Source: Escherichia coli
GTDB lineage: Bacteria > Pseudomonadota > Gammaproteobacteria > Enterobacterales > Enterobacteriaceae
NCBI RefSeq assembly: GCF_016026235.1
Contig: NZ_CP065613.1
Direction: 5' to 3' (one strand)
Length of the DNA: 64,000 nt
The position numbers and the translations under genes were made by a program. The notes beneath the pieces are model-generated. The model was not told the DNA's origin. It was given only the letters and a program-made list of their open reading frames with translations, and did not search any database. This document shows positions 6,690-60,982 of this stretch, piece by piece (the first letter of the stretch is position 1; each line of letters opens with the position of its first letter).

Positions 6690-6764
6690 TGGCTGGGGTA
6701 CGAGGATTCGAACCTCGGAATGCCGGAATCAGAATCCGGTGCCTTACCGCTTGGCGATACCCCA
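6690..6764 (-). tRNA. glnX: tRNA-Gln (anticodon CUG), 75 nt including CCA
   Basis: Reverse complement matches the E. coli tRNA-Gln2 sequence as recalled: UGGGGUAUCGCCAAGCGGUAAGGCACCGGAUUCUGAUUCCGG...CCA; anticodon loop AUUCUGAUU. Confidence 0.97.
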
Positions 6765-6801
6765 ACTGGGTGCACTTACGATGTAAGCGTCTTGAATAAA
6801 T

Positions 6802-6876
6802 TGGCTGGGGTACGAGGATTCGAACCTCGGAATGCCGGAATCAGAATCCGGTGCCTTACCGCTTGGCGATACCCCA
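6802..6876 (-). tRNA. glnV: tRNA-Gln (anticodon CUG, wild-type, i.e. not the supE CUA allele)
   Basis: Identical in sequence to the copy at 6690-6764; anticodon CUG. Confidence 0.97.
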
Positions 6877-6924
6877 ACAAATTGGTTTTTGAATTTGCCG
6901 AACGTATTCGACACATTCAGAATG

Positions 6925-7001
6925 TGGTGGCTACGACGGGATTCGAACCTGTGACCCCATCATTATGAGTGATGTGCTCTAACCAACTGAGCTACGTAGC
7001 C
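6925..7001 (-). tRNA. metU: Elongator tRNA-Met (anticodon CAU), 77 nt
   Basis: Reverse complement GGCUACGUAGCUCAGUUGGUUAGAGCACAUCACUCAUAAUGAUGGGGUCACAGGUUCGAAUCCCGUCGUAGCCACCA. Confidence 0.97.
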
Positions 7002-7016
7002 AGATTGTTTCTTCGA

Positions 7017-7091
7017 TGGCTGGGGTACCTGGATTCGAACCAGGGAATGCCGGTATCAAAAACCGGTGCCTTACCGCTTGGCGATACCCCA
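7017..7091 (-). tRNA. glnW: tRNA-Gln (anticodon UUG)
   Basis: Reverse complement gives a tRNA-Gln1-type sequence with anticodon loop UUUUGAU; CCA encoded. Confidence 0.97.
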
Positions 7092-7125
7092 ATAACCGGG
7101 CGGTGAACCGCTTACTCGAAGAAGA

Positions 7126-7200
7126 TGGCTGGGGTACCTGGATTCGAACCAGGGAATGCCGGTATCAAAAACCGGTGCCTTACCGCTTGGCGATACCCCA
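7126..7200 (-). tRNA. glnU: tRNA-Gln (anticodon UUG)
   Basis: Identical to the copy at 7017-7091. Confidence 0.97.
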
Positions 7201-7223
7201 TCCGTACAACGCTTTCTGGTGAA

Positions 7224-7308
7224 TGGTGCGGGAGGCGAGACTTGAACTCGCACACCTTGCGGCGCCAGAACCTAAATCTGGTGCGTCTACCAATTTCGCC
7301 ACTCCCGC
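7224..7308 (-). tRNA. leuW: tRNA-Leu (anticodon UAG), 85 nt with long variable arm
   Basis: Reverse complement GCGGGAGUGGCGAAAUUGGUAGACGCACCAGAUUUAGGUUCUGGCGCCGCAAGGUGUGCGAGUUCAAGUCUCGCCUCCCGCACCA. Confidence 0.96.
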
Positions 7309-7316
7309 AAAAAAGA

Positions 7317-7393
7317 TGGTGGCTACGACGGGATTCGAACCTGTGACCCCATCATTATGAGTGATGTGCTCTAACCAACTGAGCTACGTAGCC
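7317..7393 (-). tRNA. metT: Elongator tRNA-Met (anticodon CAU)
   Basis: Identical to the copy at 6925-7001; first gene of the minus-strand tRNA operon. Confidence 0.97.
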
Positions 7394-9682: not shown

Positions 9683-9795
9683 ATGCCGGATGCGGCGTGA
9701 ACGCCTTATCCGGCCTACAAAAGCATGAAAATTCAATATATTGCAGGAGCTGCGTAGGCCTGATAAGCGTAGCGCATCAGGCAGTTTGGCGTTTG
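9683..9795. repeat. BIME/RIP element: two inverted REPs flanking an IHF-like core
   Basis: gccggatgcggcgtgaacgccttatccggcctac ... aattcaatatattgcag ... gtaggcctgataagcgtagcgcatcaggc. Confidence 0.8.
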
Positions 9796-9833
9796 TCATC
9801 AGAGCCAACCACGTCCGCAGACGTGGGTGGTAT

Positions 9834-11862: not shown

Positions 11863-13871
<2,009 letters not shown>

Positions 13872-18094: not shown

Positions 18095-18275
18095 CTATGC
18101 CGGATGGGGCGTTTACGTCGCATCCGGCAAGGAACAGACAAACAGTTTCAAACGCTAAATTGCCTGATGCGCTACGCTTATCAGGCCTACATGATCTCTG
18201 CAATATATTGAGTTTGCGTGCTTTTGTAGGCCGGATAAGGCGTTCACGCCGCATCCGGCAAGAAACATGCAAACA
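18095..18275. repeat. REP/BIME cluster (RIP-type with IHF-like core)
   Basis: atgccggatggggcgtttacgtcgcatccggc, gcctgatgcgctacgcttatcaggcctac, tgcaatatattgag core, gtaggccggataaggcgttcacgccgcatccggc. Confidence 0.8.
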
Positions 18276-23314: not shown

Positions 23315-23860
23315 ATGAAAACGATTGAAGTTGATGATGAACTCTACAGCTATATTGCCAGCCACACTAAGCATATCGGCGAGAGCGCATCCGACATTTT
23401 ACGGCGTATGTTGAAATTTTCCGCCGCATCACAGCCTGCTGCTCCGGTGACGAAAGAGGTTCGCGTTGCGTCACCTGCTATCGTCGAAGCGAAGCCGGTC
23501 AAAACGATTAAAGACAAGGTTCGCGCAATGCGTGAACTTCTGCTTTCGGACGAATACGCAGAGCAAAAGCGAGCGGTCAATCGCTTTATGCTGCTGTTGT
23601 CTACACTATATTCTCTTGACGCCCAGGCGTTTGCCGAAGCAACGGAATCGTTGCACGGTCGTACACGCGTTTACTTTGCGGCAGATGAACAAACGCTGCT
23701 GAAAAATGGTAATCAGACCAAGCCGAAACATGTGCCAGGCACGCCGTATTGGGTGATCACCAACACCAACACCGGCCGTAAATGCAGCATGATCGAACAC
23801 ATCATGCAGTCGATGCAATTCCCGGCGGAATTGATTGAGAAGGTTTGCGGAACTATCTAA
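23315..23860 (+). CDS. seqA: Replication-origin sequestration protein SeqA, 181 aa
   Basis: Protein begins [36 protein letters not shown] at 23315; the ORF-table N-extension is rejected. Confidence 0.95.
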
Positions 23861-23885: not shown

Positions 23886-25526
23886 ATGGCAATCCACAAT
23901 CGTGCAGGCCAACCTGCACAACAGAGTGATTTGATTAACGTCGCCCAACTGACGGCGCAATATTATGTACTGAAACCAGAAGCAGGGAATGCGGAGCACG
24001 CGGTGAAATTCGGTACTTCCGGTCACCGTGGCAGTGCAGCGCGCCACAGCTTTAACGAGCCGCACATTCTGGCGATCGCTCAGGCAATTGCTGAAGAACG
24101 TGCGAAAAACGGCATCACTGGCCCTTGCTATGTGGGTAAAGATACTCACGCCCTGTCCGAGCCTGCGTTCATTTCCGTACTGGAAGTGCTGGCAGCGAAC
24201 GGCGTTGATGTCATTGTGCAGGAAAACAATGGCTTCACTCCGACGCCTGCCGTTTCCAATGCCATCCTGGTTCACAATAAAAAAGGTGGCCCGCTGGCAG
24301 ACGGTATCGTGATTACACCGTCCCATAACCCGCCGGAAGATGGTGGTATCAAGTACAATCCGCCAAATGGTGGCCCGGCTGATACTAACGTCACCAAAGT
24401 GGTGGAAGACAGGGCCAACGCACTGATGGCCGATGGCCTGAAAGGCGTGAAGCGTATCTCCCTCGACGAAGCGATGGCATCCGGTCATGTGAAAGAGCAG
24501 GATCTGGTGCAGCCGTTCGTGGAAGGGCTGGCCGATATCGTTGATATGGCGGCGATTCAGAAAGCGGGCCTGACGCTGGGCGTTGATCCGTTGGGCGGTT
24601 CCGGTATCGAATACTGGAAGCGCATTGGCGAGTATTACAACCTCAACCTGACCATCGTTAACGATCAGGTCGATCAAACCTTCCGCTTTATGCACCTCGA
24701 TAAAGACGGTGCGATCCGTATGGACTGCTCCTCCGAGTGTGCGATGGCGGGTCTGCTGGCACTGCGTGATAAGTTCGATCTGGCGTTTGCTAACGACCCG
24801 GATTATGACCGTCACGGTATCGTCACTCCGGCAGGTTTGATGAATCCGAACCACTACCTGGCGGTGGCGATCAACTACCTGTTCCAGCATCGTCCGCAGT
24901 GGGGCAAAGATGTTGCTGTCGGTAAAACGCTGGTTTCTTCTGCGATGATCGACCGTGTGGTCAATGACTTGGGCCGTAAGCTGGTAGAAGTACCGGTAGG
25001 TTTCAAATGGTTTGTTGATGGTCTGTTCGACGGCAGCTTCGGCTTTGGCGGCGAAGAGAGCGCAGGGGCTTCCTTCCTGCGTTTCGACGGCACGCCGTGG
25101 TCCACCGACAAAGACGGCATCATTATGTGTCTGCTGGCGGCGGAAATCACCGCTGTCACCGGTAAGAACCCGCAGGAACACTACAACGAACTGGCAAAAC
25201 GCTTTGGTGCGCCGAGCTACAACCGTTTGCAGGCAGCTGCGACTTCCGCACAAAAAGCGGCGCTGTCTAAGCTGTCTCCGGAAATGGTGAGCGCCAGCAC
25301 CCTGGCAGGTGACCCGATCACCGCGCGCCTGACTGCTGCTCCGGGCAACGGTGCTTCTATTGGCGGTCTGAAAGTGATGACTGACAACGGCTGGTTCGCC
25401 GCGCGTCCGTCAGGCACGGAAGACGCATATAAGATCTACTGCGAAAGCTTCCTCGGTGAAGAACATCGCAAGCAGATTGAGAAAGAAGCGGTTGAGATTG
25501 TTAGCGAAGTTCTGAAAAACGCGTAA
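23886..25526 (+). CDS. pgm: Phosphoglucomutase Pgm, 546 aa
   Basis: Protein begins [21 protein letters not shown]; active-site region GTSGHRG; ATG at 23886. Confidence 0.95.
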
Positions 25527-25542
25527 ACACATTTAATAAAAA

Positions 25543-25570
25543 AAGGGCGGTCGCAAGATCGCCCTTTTTT
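25543..25570 (+). terminator. Intrinsic terminator of pgm
   Basis: gggcggtc-gcaa-gatcgccc hairpin followed by TTTTTT. Confidence 0.8.
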
Positions 25571-25589
25571 ACGTATGACAAACACAGAA

Positions 25590-25690
25590 TTGCCTGATGC
25601 GCTACGCTTATCAGGCCTGCGAGGATGGTGCAATATATTGAATTTAAGCGATTTTGTAGGCCGGATAAGGCGTTCATGCCGGATCCAGCA
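25590..25690. repeat. BIME/RIP element (two inverted REPs plus IHF-like core) at the pgm-kdpE junction
   Basis: gcctgatgcgctacgcttatcaggcctgc ... caatatattgaatttaagcg ... gtaggccggataaggcgttcatgccggatcc. Confidence 0.8.
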
Positions 25691-25699
25691 TTTAACCGC

Positions 25700-26377
25700 C
25701 TAAAGCATAAACCGATACCCAATACCGGTTTCAGTAATGAAATGGCGGGGGCGAGTGGGATCCTGTTCCAGTTTTTGTCGCAGATGTCCCATATAAATAC
25801 GCAAATAATGACTGTGTTCGACCGCGTTTGGCCCCCACACCTGGTTAAGGAGTTGGCGCTGGGTGAGCACTTTCCCGGCATTATTCAGCAGCACCGCCAG
25901 CAGGCGGAATTCAATCGGCGTGAGATGCACCTCTTCCTCACCCCGGTGAATCACGCGGGCGGCTAAATCGACGGTAACATCGGAAAATTTCACCAGCGGA
26001 TCTGGCGCGGCGGTGGCGGAGTGGCGGCGTAAAGCGACGCGCAGACGGGCCTGCAATTCGCCAATGCCAAACGGCTTACTTAGATAATCATCCGCTCCGG
26101 CATCCAGCGCGGCGATTTTGTCGCTCTCTTCGCTGCGTGCGGAAAGCACAATCACCGGCACCGCGCTCCACTGGCGCAGGTCGCGGATAAACTCAATCCC
26201 ATCACCATCGGGCAGGCCGAGATCGAGAATAATCAAATCTGGCTTACGGGTTGCCGCTTCCAGCAAGCCGCGTTGCAGCGTTTCGGCCTCAAAGACGCGC
26301 ATACCGTCGCCCTCCAGCGCCGTGCGCAGAAAGCGACGAATAGCCTGTTCATCTTCAACAATCAGAACGTTTGTCAC
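25700..26377 (-). CDS. kdpE: Response regulator KdpE (OmpR family), 225 aa
   Basis: [66 protein letters not shown]...; receiver plus winged-helix domains. Confidence 0.96.
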   Translation of the reverse strand: MTNVLIVEDEQAIRRFLRTALEGDGMRVFEAETLQRGLLEAATRKPDLIILDLGLPDGDGIEFIRDLRQWSAVPVIVLSARSEESDKIAALDAGADDYLSKPFGIGELQARLRVALRRHSATAAPDPLVKFSDVTVDLAARVIHRGEEEVHLTPIEFRLLAVLLNNAGKVLTQRQLLNQVWGPNAVEHSHYLRIYMGHLRQKLEQDPTRPRHFITETGIGYRFML

Positions 26378-29058
26378 ATATCCTCATGAAATTCTTCAAG
26401 TTCAGGGGCAGTTTGCTGGGGAAGTGTAACACGAAAACAGGCACCACCTTCCGGTCGGTTGAACGCGGTAATAGTGCCCCCGTGTACATCCACTATCGCC
26501 CGACAAATTGCCAGTCCAAGCCCTACACCCGGTACTGCCGACTCTTTATTCCCGCGAGCAAATTTATCAAATATCGTCTGCTCCTGGCCTGGCGGAAGAC
26601 CGGGGCCGTTATCCCAGACATCCAGTTGTAGATTTTCGCCCTCAACGTGGGCATCGATACCAATTTCCGCCTGCGCACCCGCATATTTCACCGCGTTCTC
26701 CAGCAGATTAATCAGCACCCGTTCAAAGAGTGGCCCGTCAACGTGGATTAAGGTCAGCGGTTCTGGCAGAGAAAGGTTGATGGGCGACGATAAACCCGGT
26801 TCCAGCATTTGCAGCGCGCTGCCGACTACTTCTTCCAGCGTTAACCACTCTTTCTTCAAATTAAAGCCGCCGGACTGAATTCGCGCCATATCCAGTAGAT
26901 TATTCACCAGTCGGGTAGTGTTCAGCACATGCTGACGAATCTCGCTGGCCTGGCGGGCGTGGGGCGATCCTTCGCTTGCCAGATCGAGCGTTAAGATTTC
27001 TGCCTGACCGAACAACACCGTGAGCGGAGTGCGTAAATCATGCGAAAGCGCCGCCAGCAGGGCGTTGCGGATCTGTTCACGTTCGCTTGCCATCCGCGCC
27101 TGTTCTTCGCTGGCGGTCAGCGTCAGCCGCTCAAGCGCATTGGCGACTAACAGCGTAAACGTCTCCAGCAGGCGCTGCTGTTCCGGGATCATCAACTGAC
27201 GCAGATTCCCCGGTTCCACCACCACCAGCCCGTAGGTTTTCTCACCGCTTTTTAACGGCAAAATCTGGTACGGCACGCCGGGTAACGTGTCGGTGCCCGC
27301 GCCCGCAGGCAGGCCTTTATCAAAACTCCACTGCGCGATGGCATCGTCCCACGGCGTCATTCCTTGCGGATGTGTTAACGGCTGCAATTTACCGTTGTCA
27401 TCGGGCAACAACACCTGACTGCGGGCATGAAACGTGGAGGCAATAAATTGTTCGCTGGTGGCGGCGATGTCCTGCGGACTGCGGCCCACCGCCAGAGCTT
27501 TCGACATTTCATATAAGTGCCGTGTGCGTTGCTCGCGGTAACGGGCTACCCGCGCCTGATAACGCACACCCGCAGTAAGATTCCCGATCACCAGCCCGAC
27601 GGTTAACATCACCGCGAAGGTCAGCAGATATTGCACATCAGAGACGGCGAGCGTGCCGCGTGGGGCGATAAAAAAGAGATCGAAACTCACCACATTAATG
27701 ACGGTAGCAACCACCGAAGGCCAGCGTCCATAAAATAGCGCCACCACCACCACGCCAAGTAGATACAGCATCACCAGGTTGGCGGCATCAAACGCCATCA
27801 GCCACTGCATGGCAATTAAGGTGATAACGGCGCATAACGCGGCGGCAACCACGCATCCCTGAATCTGTACCCGCCACTTGTCTTTAAAAGAGCGGCTATC
27901 CGGCGCGTTGTTAATCGTGCGGGCGGGTGGTTCATCAAGCGCGACCAGCACCTGATCGAGATCGGGGGCGATGCGCGCCAGTCGGTCAGCAAACGTTTCC
28001 CGACGCCACCAGCGGCGCGAGGCTGGGCGACCGAGAATAATCTTGCCGAGATTATGTTCACGGGCATAACGCACTACCGCTTTCTCTTCCGCTGGATCAG
28101 AAAGTGTTGCCGTCTCCGCGCTCAGCTCCTGCGCCAGACGTAAGGCGCTGAGAATTGCCCGACGTTTTTTCTCCGGTAAGCGATGCAGGGCAGGGGTTTC
28201 AACATACACCGCGTGCCAGACGCTCCCCAGCCGCGACGCCAGCCGCGACGCCGCGCGGACCAGTTTCTCACTGCCGGTGTTATGGCCGATGCATAAAAGG
28301 ATCGCGTCGCGCGTGTGCCAGACTTTCTCTTCGCCAGGATGCCCCCGCCAGGCGCGCATTTGCTCATCTACGCGATCGGCAGTACGGCGCAGTGCCAGTT
28401 CGCGCAGGGCGATCAGATTGCCTTTGCGGAAAAAATGTTCAATGGCGCGCTCCGCCTGCCCGGCAATATAGACTTTGCCTTCTTTCAGCCGCTGGCGCAG
28501 ATCGTCCGGGGGCAAGTCCACCAGCACCACGTCGTCGGCGGCATCGAAAAAAGGATCGGGCACGGTTTCCCGTACCTGAATTCCGGTGACGCCGCTGACC
28601 ACATCATTCAGGCTTTCCAGATGTTGAACGTTGACGGTAGTAAAAACATCAATGCCTGCTTCCAGCAGCTCTTCAATATCCTGCCAGCGTTTGGGATGAC
28701 GAGAACCAGGTGCATTACTGTGCGCCAGTTCGTCCATTAAGATCAGCGCCGGACGGCGGGCGAGGGCGGCATCGAGATCAAACTCGCTGATGTGCCGCCC
28801 ACGGTACGCCTGGCGTTTTGGCGGTAGAACAGCCAGCCCTTCGAGCATTGCTGCAGTATCTTTCCGCCCGTGGGTTTCTACCACGCCAACCACAATATCC
28901 AGCCCTTGCGCCCGCAGTCGCTGGGCTTCTGCCAGCATCGCCCAGGTCTTCCCGACGCCTGCGCAGGCACCGAAGAAAACTTTCAGCTTCCCCCGATGCG
29001 GCGCGGCAGTTTGTTCCAGCAGACGATCGGGGTCGGGACGTAAGGGTTCGTTATTCAT
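26374..29058 (-). CDS. kdpD: Sensor histidine kinase KdpD, 894 aa
   Basis: Protein begins [15 protein letters not shown]-terminal Walker-type [10 protein letters not shown]-box [16 protein letters not shown] at 29058; 4-bp overlap with kdpE. Confidence 0.95.
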
Positions 29059-31702: not shown

Positions 31703-33376
31703 TCAGGAGAGATATTCCGCCACCGGACCAAGCGCCAGGGCAGGGATAAAGGTCAGTGCGCCAACCAGCAACACGGTGCCGATTAACAGGCCAACAAACA
31801 GCGGGCCGTGCGTTGGCAGCGTGCCGGAGCTGGCGGGTTGGCTCTTTTTACTCACCAGCGAACCGGCAATTGCCATCACCGGGATAATCACCCCGAAGCG
31901 ACCGACAAACATGCAGAACGCCAGTAAACAGTTCCAGAACGGAGAGTTGGCGCTTAATCCGGCAAAGGCGCTGCCGTTGTTGTTAGCGGCGGATGACACG
32001 GCGTACAGCACTTCGCTAAAACCATGCGGGCCAGGGTTGAGCATGGCGCTACGTCCGGCGTCGGTCATCATTGCCAGCGCCGCGCCCATCAGCACCAGCG
32101 TCGGGGTGACCAGAATCGCCAGTGCAGTCAGTTTCATCTCACGTACGTCGATTTTTTTACCCAGATATTCCGGTGTACGACCAATCATCAGCCCGGCAAT
32201 AAACACCGCCAGCAGGACAAACAGCATCATGCCGTAAAGACCAGAACCGACACCGCCGAATACCACTTCACCAATTTGCATCAGCCACATCGGCACCATG
32301 CCACCGAGAGCGGTAAACGAATCATGCATCGCAATCACCGCGCCACAGGACGCCGCCGTAGTCACGACCGCAAACAGGCTACTGACCAGCACGCCGAAAC
32401 GGCTCTCTTTACCTTCCATATTGATGCTGCTGTCTGCGCCGAGCGCCAGCAGATGAGGATTACCCTGAACTTCTGCCCACATCACCACGCCTACGCAGAT
32501 GACAAAAATCACTGACATCGCCCACAGCAACATGCGCCCCTGGCGGCGATCGCCCGTCACTTCACCAAAGGCAAAGCACAGCGCTGTTGGGATCAAGAAG
32601 ATCGCCAGCATCTGCACGAAGTTGGTCAGTGCGGTTGGGTTTTCAAACGGATGCGACGAGTTGGCATTAAAGAAGCCACCGCCGTTAGTACCGAGCATCT
32701 TGATCGCTTCCTGAGAAGCTACTGGCCCCATGGGTAACAGCTGTTGCGCTCCTTCAACGGTATTCACTGCCTGATAGGGCAGAAAGTTTTGCAGCGCACC
32801 TTGTTGAATAAAAAACAGTGCGATCAACAACGCCACAGGGACTAGCACCCATAACGTGATGCGTAGCAGATCGACCCAGGCATTCCCGAGTGTGCTCATG
32901 CTCTGGCGGGTAAATGCACGGATGAAGGCAAAAATCACCGCAATCCCGCTGGCGGCAGAAAGAAAGTTTTGCACCGTTAAGCCCGCCATCTGGCTGAAAT
33001 AGCTCAACGTGGTTTCACCGCTATAAGATTGCCAGTTGGTATTGGTGACAAAGCTGACGGCGGTATTCAGCGCCAGATCCCACGACAGCCCCGGCAACTG
33101 CTGTGGATTAAGCGGCAGATAGTGCTGACCGAGCAACATAAAAAACAGCACCGCCAGCCCCAGCATGTTCAGGCCGAGAATGGCACAAAGATATTGCTTC
33201 CAGTTCATCTCATGGTCAGAGACGCCAGGTAAACGAAAGAGTATACGTTCAACGCCCGCTGTACCTGGAAGAGGAATGTCATTAATCAGCCGCGCCAGCC
33301 CGCTGCCTAAAGGACGCGCCAGCACCATTAACACCAGTAAAAACGTGGCGATCAGTAAGAACCCTTGCGCAGCCAT
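31703..33376 (-). CDS. kdpA: K+-transporting ATPase channel subunit KdpA, 557 aa
   Basis: Protein begins [30 protein letters not shown]; polytopic membrane protein; ATG at 33376 overlapping the kdpF stop. Confidence 0.95.
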
Positions 33377-33465: not shown

Positions 33466-33540
33466 AGTGCACCTCCAGTGGCCTAAAAGTGATACCGGAA
33501 GGGTAGAATTCTGGCTGCAAAGATTTCGCAAAAATCTGCG

Positions 33541-33570
33541 GACGGGGTGTAAAAAAAGTATAAAAATGGC
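33541..33570 (-). promoter_or_regulatory. KdpE binding site / kdpFABC promoter region
   Basis: Minus-strand CATTTTTATACTTTTTTTACACCCCGTC containing direct half-site repeats TTTATAC / TTTTTAC; matches my recollection of the KdpE operator. Confidence 0.55.
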
Positions 33571-33777
33571 AAAAGCCATGATTTAACTAATGTTTAGTAT
33601 TAATTTAACTTTTGTGTAACTTAATTACAGGGTGAATGTAAATAAACCATCAATAAGCAAAAATAAGTGGTCGGATGAGTAGTAAAATTACACAAAAGGC
33701 GGTACTATTTTCATCAGATAAACAAATTCATTTTTCCGGTGCTATTCACCGGGTAGATACAAAAGGGGGAGAAAAGT

Positions 33778-33984
33778 ATGGAACTCTACAGAGAATATCC
33801 TGCATGGCTTATCTTTTTACGCCGTACTTATGCGGTTGCAGCGGGCGTTCTGGCGCTGCCTTTCATGCTTTTCTGGAAAGACCGCGCCCGCTTTTACAGC
33901 TACCTGCACCGCGTCTGGTCGAAAACCAGCGACAAACCGGTGTGGATGGATCAGGCCGAAAAGGCAACCGGTGATTTTTACTGA
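33778..33984 (+). CDS. ybfA: Small membrane protein YbfA (DUF2517), 68 aa
   Basis: [71 protein letters not shown]. Confidence 0.85.
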
Positions 33985-34004
33985 TTGCTGAGTTTTGAAT
34001 ACAT

Positions 34005-34040
34005 TGAAAACCGCTAGTGGAAACGCTGGCGGTTTTTTTC
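34005..34040 (+). terminator. Intrinsic terminator downstream of ybfA
   Basis: aaccgc...gcggtt hairpin followed by TTTTTTT (34034-34040). Confidence 0.65.
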
Positions 34041-60214: not shown

Positions 60215-60269
60215 GGTAATGCTGCCAACTTACTGATTTAGTGTATGATGGTGATTTTAAGGTGCTTGC

Positions 60270-60545
60270 GTGGCTTCCATTTCCATCAGATGTCCTTCCT
60301 GCTCCGCTACTGAAGGCGTGGTGCGTAACGGCAAAAGCACTGCCGGACATCAGCGCTATCTCTGCTCTCATTGCCGTAAAACATGGCAACTACAGTTCAC
60401 TTACACCGCCTCTCAGCCCGGTACGCACCAGAAAATCATTGATATGGCCATGAATGGCGTCGGATGTCGCGCCAGTGCACGCATTATGGGCGTTGGCCTC
60501 AACACGGTTTTACGTCACTTAAAAAACTCAGGCCGCAGTCGGTAA
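60270..60545 (+). CDS. insA: IS1 protein InsA (transposition inhibitor / N-terminal part of transposase), 91 aa, GTG start
   Basis: [40 protein letters not shown]... zinc-finger and HTH; differs at several residues from the canonical IS1 InsA as I recall it. Confidence 0.93.
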
Positions 60546-60967
60546 CCTCGCGCATACAACCGGGCAGTGATGTGATTGTCTGCGCTGAAATGGACGAACA
60601 GTGGGGCTACGTCGGTGCTAAATCACGTCAGCGCTGGCTGTTTTACGCGTATGACAGGATACGGAGGACGGTTGTGGCGCACGTCTTCGGTGAACGCACT
60701 CTGGCCACACTGGAGCGTCTTCTGAGCCTGCTGTCGGCCTTTGAGGTCGTGGTATGGATGACGGATGGCTGGCCGCTGTATGAATCACGCCTGAAGGGAA
60801 AGCTGCACGTTATCAGCAAGCGTTACACTCAGCGCATTGAGCGACATAATCTGAATCTGAGACAACATCTGGCAAGGCTGGGACGGAAGTCACTGTCGTT
60901 CTCAAAATCGGTGGAGCTGCATGACAAGGTCATCGGGCATTATCTGAACATAAAACACTATCAGTAA
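60464..60967 (+). CDS. insB: IS1 insB frame (expressed as InsAB' transposase after -1 frameshift)
   Basis: ORF in the -1 frame relative to insA containing the conserved IS1 transposase sequence ...[39 protein letters not shown]... Confidence 0.9.
60521..60527 (+). promoter_or_regulatory. Programmed -1 ribosomal frameshift site (A6C) of IS1
   Basis: ttAAAAAACtc near the end of insA, in the insA/insB overlap. Confidence 0.8.
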
Positions 60968-60982
60968 GTTGGAGTCATTACC

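Follow-up and report, generated by a model that had tools for sequence, protein, structure and literature searches.

Within the window (the whole 64-kb stretch of Escherichia coli DNA analysed here), the phosphoglucomutase gene pgm and the response regulator gene kdpE are convergent, and 173 bp separate the stop codon of the former from that of the latter. This interval is composed of a terminator-like hairpin, a REP unit, a linker of ~30 bp, a second REP unit and a 10-bp spacer. The following features were distinguished:

23886-25526, + strand: pgm (phosphoglucomutase), delimited by the end of its ORF, with the stop codon TAA at 25524-25526; 3' neighbour of seqA
25539-25570, both strands: terminator-like hairpin, recognized as an inverted repeat (I1) with 14-nt arms, a GC stem and flanking A- and T-runs
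about 25592-25624, no strand assigned: REP unit 1, GCCTGATGCGCTACGCTTATCAGGCC..., the left arm of inverted pair I2
25625-25654, core (25631-25643) on the - strand: BIME linker with a putative IHF-like core, ATTCAATATATTG, recognized by motif match
25655-25690, no strand assigned: REP unit 2, TGTAGGCCGGATAAGGCGTTCATGCCGGATCCAGCA, at whose last base the K-12 homology on the pgm side stops
25690-25699, no strand assigned: 10-bp spacer ATTTAACCGC between REP unit 2 and the kdpE stop codon (position 25690 belongs to REP unit 2 as well, as its final base)
25700-26377, - strand: kdpE (response regulator), intact, 225 aa, recognized as an ORF and from the annotation of a near-identical genome
26374-29058, - strand: kdpD (sensor kinase), followed by kdpCBA(F), from the annotation of a near-identical genome

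The coding sequence of pgm (1,641 nt) shares 98.4% identity with its K-12 counterpart. The stop codon of kdpE (25700-25702) reads CTA on the + strand, i.e. TAG, and the kdp operon appears intact in the window, with long ORFs extending through kdpA. The kdpE/kdpD region (25700-29058) is unusually diverse in E. coli, with pairs of kdpE genes down to 94.0% nucleotide identity, while the nearby seqA (23315-23860) is at least 98.9% identical across that set of genomes. Over positions 24500-26700 the window is 100% identical to the RefSeq genome of strain FDAARGOS_943, in which pgm, kdpE, kdpD, kdpC and kdpB are annotated, with zero features between pgm and kdpE. An earlier note on this DNA had described a spacing of about 170 bp occupied by a terminator and one BIME/RIP element, and had proposed that speF and potE, encoding the inducible ornithine decarboxylase and the putrescine-ornithine antiporter, respectively, are missing from this position. 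Folding and inverted-repeat analysis confirmed the former, and the latter agrees with the annotation of FDAARGOS_943 and with tblastn searches of the 64-kb window with K-12 queries, in which SpeF and PotE (E≤1e-3), YbfP and YbfG found no match. At the junction itself, none of the 10 Rfam 15 matches reached its gathering score (the best, naRNA4, scored 26.3 bits against a threshold of 59.5).

The hairpin at 25539-25570 folds with -21.5 kcal/mol on the + strand and -17.8 kcal/mol on the - strand (z of -6.3 and -4.4, respectively; equalled by no shuffled sequence), and is followed by a T6 run on the + strand and a T7 run on the - strand. A strict consensus terminator scan of the junction found nothing, the hairpin escaping it through one stem mismatch. 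Because both strands fold strongly, the hairpin looks like a bidirectional intrinsic terminator, predicted to end both of the converging transcripts, that of pgm and that of kdp. It is conserved in all pgm-kdpE allele types described below.

The two REP units contain an inverted pair, CTTATCAGGCCT / AGGCCGGATAAG (25607-25618 and 25658-25669; 92% complementary), and in minus-strand folding each of them makes its own stem-loop, placed on the kdp 3' untranslated side of the convergent gene end. The linker core ATTCAATATATTG differs from the IHF consensus WATCAANNNNTTR by one mismatch, a consensus that by itself shows no enrichment in the window (63 matches against 50 expected); the same or a near-identical core occurs beside REP copies at about 9731, 18201 and 36085. 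By analogy with the known RIP/BIME-1 class, the linker may bind IHF. The REP core GCCGGATAAGGCGTT is present in five copies in the window (0 expected), and queries containing the spacer found a median of 17-18 matching places per E. coli genome. The junction element is thus an ordinary one of the BIME-1/RIP type of enterobacteria, with which it shares the inverted REP pair, the ~30-bp linker with a putative IHF-like core, the extragenic position between convergent genes and the multi-copy occurrence. Nothing distinguishes it from that class, apart from two substitutions in REP unit 2 relative to the K-12 copy (ATGCCGGATCCAGC vs. ACGCCGCATCCGGC). REP unit 1 is also found downstream of pgm in K-12 and in strain 135. 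Three further BIME/RIP-like elements are located in the window (9683-9799, 18149-18267 and 36037-36121); they are 85-90% identical to the junction element and each carries the REP core and a ATTCAATATATTG-type linker. In strain 23CRST026 (locus L093, 7321-8669), the position of the junction BIME, between pgm and ybfP, is occupied by IS1397, an IS3-family element that targets BIMEs (BIME linkers).

In K-12 the stop codons of pgm and kdpE lie 5,857 bp apart (vs. 173 bp in the window), and the order is pgm - BIME - ybfP - ybfG' - ybfI' - potE - speF - speFL - kdpE, where ybfP is annotated as a lipoprotein gene, ybfG' as a DUF2625 pseudogene and ybfI' as encoding a partial winged-helix protein. 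The gene order given for K-12 in the earlier note (ybfP, ybfG, potE and speF between pgm and kdpE) was therefore correct. The window aligns to K-12 at 99.2% identity from within pgm to position 25690, and the alignment resumes at 25702, in the kdpE stop codon. The flanking genes, the pgm terminator and the BIME directly after pgm are shared by both, whereas the window lacks all six features of the K-12 interval (ybfP, ybfG', ybfI', potE, speF and speFL) and has TAG instead of TGA as the kdpE stop codon.

The 142 bp at the 3' end of kdpE of the window align not only to K-12 kdpE, but also, at 88.7% identity, to K-12 ybfI' (locus L001, 11552-11693). Because the same 142 bp align to both, ybfI' is, judging from its sequence, a remnant of the kdpE 3' end, with a TGA stop codon of its own. 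In K-12 this remnant breaks off at a REP half-site; next come ~30 bp with homology to the upstream region of ybfP and then the pgm/potE terminator in a diverged copy (L001, 11693-11775). The REP half-site at the truncation indicates that REP-associated joints recur at this locus. The K-12-type locus looks like a mosaic, in which the speF-potE cassette and kdpE were laid onto a cassette-less pgm-ybfP-ybfG-kdpE allele, and it is K-12 that carries the most rearranged version of the pgm-kdpE locus. Full-text searching of the literature found no report of this polymorphism or of ybfI as a kdpE fragment.

The structure of the locus was then compared across E. coli, with allele structures taken from annotated loci and allele counts from 5,426 complete genomes. 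Four types were distinguished: (i) T1, pgm / potE speF speFL / kdpE, in ~59% of the genomes (about 3,190, by subtraction), where pgm and potE are 57 bp apart and REPs are absent (e.g., EC958 and O157:H7); (ii) T2, the K-12 type, with pgm, BIME, ybfP, ybfG', the kdpE remnant, potE, speF, speFL and kdpE, in 1,848 genomes (~34%); (iii) T3, with pgm, BIME, a ybfP-like gene, a second BIME and kdpE, without speF-potE, in ~5% (e.g., strain 135, NZ_CP080260.1); and (iv) T4, the form of the window, with pgm, BIME and kdpE, in ~1-2%. In 353 of the 5,426 genomes (range 353-360), no more than about 1.1 kb separates pgm from kdpE. The best 60 of these 353 all have the one-piece compact form, while the genome at about rank 92 already has the ybfP form (T3). 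The number of T4 genomes is thus between 60 and about 91, most of the remainder being T3; a shorter query still joined both forms.

The speF-potE cassette was found at a coverage of at least 80% in 5,037-5,038 genomes, whose median is one place per genome, with at most two at the stringent cut-off (at most three by default), almost always chromosomal. No substantial match (E≤1e-100) was obtained in 377 genomes, a number that fits the 353-360 close pgm-kdpE pairs if a few loci disrupted in other ways are added. The cassette is thus missing from about 7% of complete E. coli genomes, including the O145:H28 genomes among the best matches. The whole genome from which the window derives is probably devoid of it too, judged from 64 kb of that genome. 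Candidates for an intermediate allele carrying the BIME and the cassette without ybfP turned out to be K-12-type variants. We also considered whether the K-12 speF-potE is a foreign allele, since it shares 94-95% identity with that of most E. coli, yet EC958 and O157:H7 share only 96.3% with each other, so the cassette is simply diverse and the K-12 copy is not foreign; within E. coli, speF-potE identities are 94.7-96.3%.

The compact junction was aligned in five E. coli alleles (the window, O145:H28, O139:H1, O169:H41 and a pig isolate), and terminator, BIME, ATTTAACCGC spacer and TAG stop codon are common to all five. The 10-bp spacer is a signature of the compact allele, and homologues of it are present in Escherichia whittamii, in SCPM-O-B-8794 and on the right side of the ybfP allele (T3). 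Homologous arrangements (terminator, BIME, about 11 bp and TAG) were found in E. whittamii (175 bp between the two genes) and in SCPM-O-B-8794 (176 bp), whose genome bears the label E. coli but came out of the scan as a species representative of its own. The junctions of O145:H28 (RM12581 and related strains), O169:H41, O139:H1 and FDAARGOS_943 share the architecture of the window, with 93-100% identity over the junction query, although those of O145 and O139 lack 11 bp upstream of REP unit 1 and carry a few REP substitutions relative to the window. The genes flanking the compact alleles, by comparison, diverge by 2-5% (up to 5.6%). The identity of kdpE is 94.4-97.9% within the T4 alleles and 94.0-97.5% between T4 and the cassette-bearing T1 and T2. 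Since the flanks are as diverse as the species, the compact structural allele is not recent, but old in relation to E. coli diversity. The flanks of the window are 97-99% identical to other E. coli and about 92% identical to E. whittamii. A recent import of the region from another species was also considered, and rejected: identity to K-12, O157:H7 and EC958, followed in sliding steps, is 95-99% to the left of the junction as well as to its right.

The edges of the cassette are best seen against T1, with which the homology of the window stops after the T-run of the terminator (25570-25572) and resumes at the kdpE stop codon (25702-25705). Among the Escherichia alleles examined, kdpE ends in TAG in every one without the cassette (T3, T4, E. 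whittamii and SCPM-O-B-8794), and in TGA in every one with it (T1, T2 and E. albertii). The TGA of cassette-bearing kdpE genes belongs to the first half of a palindrome, TGAAT-N4-ATTCA, which is present in E. coli T1, degraded in K-12 and absent from all compact alleles, and which, read by eye, occupies the same spot in 20 of the 29 cassette-bearing species of other genera among the loci listed. In O157:H7 (locus L005, about 13395-13412) it reads TTTGAATTTTTATTCAAT; the palindrome also lies at about 13394-13411 of locus L004 and, directly behind kdpE, in many outgroup loci (from 9676). The TAG/TGA split and the overlap of the palindrome with TGA place the indel boundary within the kdpE stop codon and make the palindrome a part of the cassette. 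It has what we take to be a resemblance to an ArgR site (ARG box), of which a single box is seen; we know of no report of ArgR control of speF.

The earlier note had suggested that the REP pair may mark the recombination site at which speF-potE was lost. This was not borne out: the BIME occupies the same place, with 99.2% identity, in K-12-type genomes that keep the cassette, and no REP was found between pgm and kdpE in the cassette-bearing majority type (EC958 and O157:H7) or in E. albertii. Because it is present in the former and absent from T1, the BIME is not a scar of cassette loss, the cassette being bounded by the kdpE stop codon on one side and by the last position of the pgm terminator (25572) on the other. 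Nor is the junction peculiar to this strain: its architecture is common, base for base, to at least 60 other E. coli, E. whittamii and one more Escherichia representative.

What the REP units do mark is how this allele differs from those containing ybfP. In T3 the ybfP-like gene is flanked by two direct copies of a 36-bp REP, TGTAGGCCGGATAAGGCGTTCACGCCGCATCCGGCA, and the sequence of the window equals the left BIME of T3 joined to the right spacer and kdpE of T3, which relates the two forms by a REP-by-REP exchange. The T3 allele of strain 135 resembles the window in the missing speF-potE, the left BIME, the TAG stop codon and the homologous spacer at kdpE, and differs from it by a gene for a 164-aa ybfP-like lipoprotein and a second BIME (+637 bp). 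A change from T3 to T4 by deletion of ybfP would be mechanistically simple, but an insertion of ybfP at the REP is equally possible, and the occurrence of T4 in E. whittamii and SCPM-O-B-8794 fits T4 as the older form.

In order to place these alleles in a wider context, KdpE was used to scan one genome per species, which gave 80 listed loci, 73 of them classifiable; the list runs without several Escherichia species (among them E. fergusonii, E. marmotae and E. ruysiae), Salmonella and the main E. coli representative. Of the 73 species, 29 have kdpE and pgm tail to tail and no more than 300 bp apart, 12 have them 300-2,000 bp apart and three further apart, while in another 29, all of them Enterobacteriaceae, speF(-potE) lies between them. 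In Pantoea, Serratia, Dickeya, Pectobacterium and Yersinia, no speF intervenes between kdpE and the following pgm at any listed locus with both genes, and presence of speF-potE is mixed within Citrobacter, Enterobacter, Phytobacter and Escherichia (among the loci listed). The adjacency of kdpE and pgm is a deep ancestral synteny of Enterobacterales, and speF-potE stands between them only in a patchy subset of Enterobacteriaceae.

The ancestral junctions (Pantoea, Serratia, Franconibacter and some Citrobacter) share with the compact Escherichia form the tail-to-tail kdpE and pgm, the hairpin and the lack of speF-potE. They differ in length and layout: the shortest are 38-105 bp, with the hairpin right after the kdpE stop codon and no BIME (read by eye), and others reach about 2 kb, whereas in Escherichia a BIME stands between the hairpin and kdpE. 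Compact junctions of other genera are themselves variable, some Citrobacter having TGAAT after the stop codon and others TAA and then the hairpin at once, which is consistent with independent losses. The identity of SpeF to its K-12 counterpart is 94% in E. albertii, 90-92% in Citrobacter, 86-87% in Kluyvera, 84-86% in most Enterobacter and 82-83% in Atlantibacter (an outlying locus labelled C. freundii, L066, has 81%), and the identities of KdpE and Pgm fall by genus in step with it. The shared edge palindrome and the tracking of KdpE and Pgm by SpeF divergence favour one ancient insertion followed by vertical inheritance.

Taken together, these data make it probable that the window carries an old cassette-less pgm-kdpE allele, present in ~1-2% of E. 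coli (~6.5% with the ybfP variant) and also in other Escherichia, in which the BIME is a resident element and not a deletion trace. Most likely, a single ancient insertion would have put the cassette between kdpE and pgm in the ancestor of several genera of Enterobacteriaceae, followed by vertical descent and, across the family, by several independent losses of the cassette. The event that we infer for Escherichia is one old loss, with an end point inside the kdpE stop codon, after which the cassette-less allele would have survived, homologous recombination carrying it from lineage to lineage. The difference between T4 and T3 would have arisen, in one direction or the other, by exchange between the two direct 36-bp REP copies flanking ybfP.

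An extension of this scenario, which we offer tentatively and consider rather doubtful as a whole, would have the speF-potE polymorphism long-lived across Escherichia, maintained by alternating selection on inducible putrescine and by recombination via the flanks, with the lineage of K-12 (~1/3 of E. coli) re-acquiring the cassette and keeping ybfI' as the scar.

The compact allele could also represent an ancestral arrangement that was never interrupted, or was re-imported from a cassette-less relative, its compactness being a deep ancestral state and the BIME a later gain; speF-potE in other E. coli would then be a gain rather than a loss in the compact form. This agrees with the adjacency of kdpE and pgm, which is universal outside Enterobacteriaceae and common within them (among the loci listed), and with the spacer, which contains no remnant of speFL or potE, so that nothing in the sequence itself attests a deletion. 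The 142-bp ybfI' remnant of kdpE between ybfG and potE, an apparent scar, indicates moreover that gains do happen at this locus. On the other hand, E. coli T1, E. albertii, Citrobacter, Kluyvera, Enterobacter, Lelliottia and others all have the cassette at one and the same position and with one and the same edge palindrome, and SpeF has diverged in parallel with the genes that flank it, both of which argue that the ancestor of Escherichia already carried the cassette. A polymorphism kept since before the genera split is unlikely, and the flanks of the window are those of an ordinary E. coli, with no sign of a recent foreign import. We therefore judge uninterrupted absence or re-import to be improbable, and an old loss within Escherichia to be more likely than either.

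A model along the lines of the earlier note, in which a K-12-like ancestor recently, and in this strain alone, lost ybfP-ybfG-potE-speF via the REP pair, draws on the exact stop of K-12 homology at the end of REP unit 2 (25690) and its resumption at the kdpE stop codon, on the REP half-site at the K-12 joint of the kdpE remnant and potE and on the fact that REPs are known substrates for rearrangement, but it is highly improbable in view of the identical junction shared with two further Escherichia representatives and with E. coli of unrelated serotypes (at least 60 other complete genomes), of compact-allele flanking genes that differ by up to 5.6%, of the lack in K-12 of a REP beside the kdpE stop codon that could pair with the pgm-side one, and of the TAG of kdpE here (TGA in K-12), which a simple REP-by-REP deletion does not yield.

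Presence or absence of speF-potE is accordingly an ordinary polymorphism of E. coli; the junction is public and annotated in dozens of complete genomes, and its components are standard. As predicted from gene content, a strain with T3 or T4 should be without an ornithine- and low-pH-inducible decarboxylase and a putrescine/ornithine antiporter from this locus. Such a strain would depend on SpeC and SpeA/SpeB for putrescine, with only the constitutive ornithine decarboxylase route left, and slight shifts in acid tolerance, in putrescine export or in the results of ornithine-decarboxylase tests could follow. The population picture may be of interest to polyamine ecology, though it opens no new mechanism. 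For the scanning of genomes, what is absent by comparison with K-12 often proves to be a common segregating allele, not something that happened in the strain under study.

The closest complete genome, FDAARGOS_943, is 99.94% identical to the window but differs in its mobile elements. It carries (i) an IS5-family element in kdpA (the site, 32842-32845, is intact in the window), (ii) an IS1 by which dtpD is cut short and its neighbour, between dtpD and pxpB, is lost (37549-38639, intact in the window) and (iii) an IS1 near gltA (48007-48015, intact in the window), while the window has an IS1 of its own at 60215-60982, between sucD and mngR. Movement of insertion sequences in the lineage of the window and FDAARGOS_943 is recent, and their differing positions show that the window stems from another strain. 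At about 33520-34020 of the window, kdpF/ybfA is directly followed by ybgA and phrB, as it is in FDAARGOS_943; in K-12 the RhsC element and ybfB-ybfD presumably lie between ybfA and ybgA and, if so, are absent from the window. At 6690-7393 the window contains a cluster of seven tRNA genes (Met, Leu, two Gln(UUG), Met and two Gln(CUG)). Six tRNAs, one Gln fewer, are annotated in FDAARGOS_943, yet the aligned stretch is about 113 bp longer than in the window; the copy number of the tandem tRNA-Gln unit varies between close relatives.
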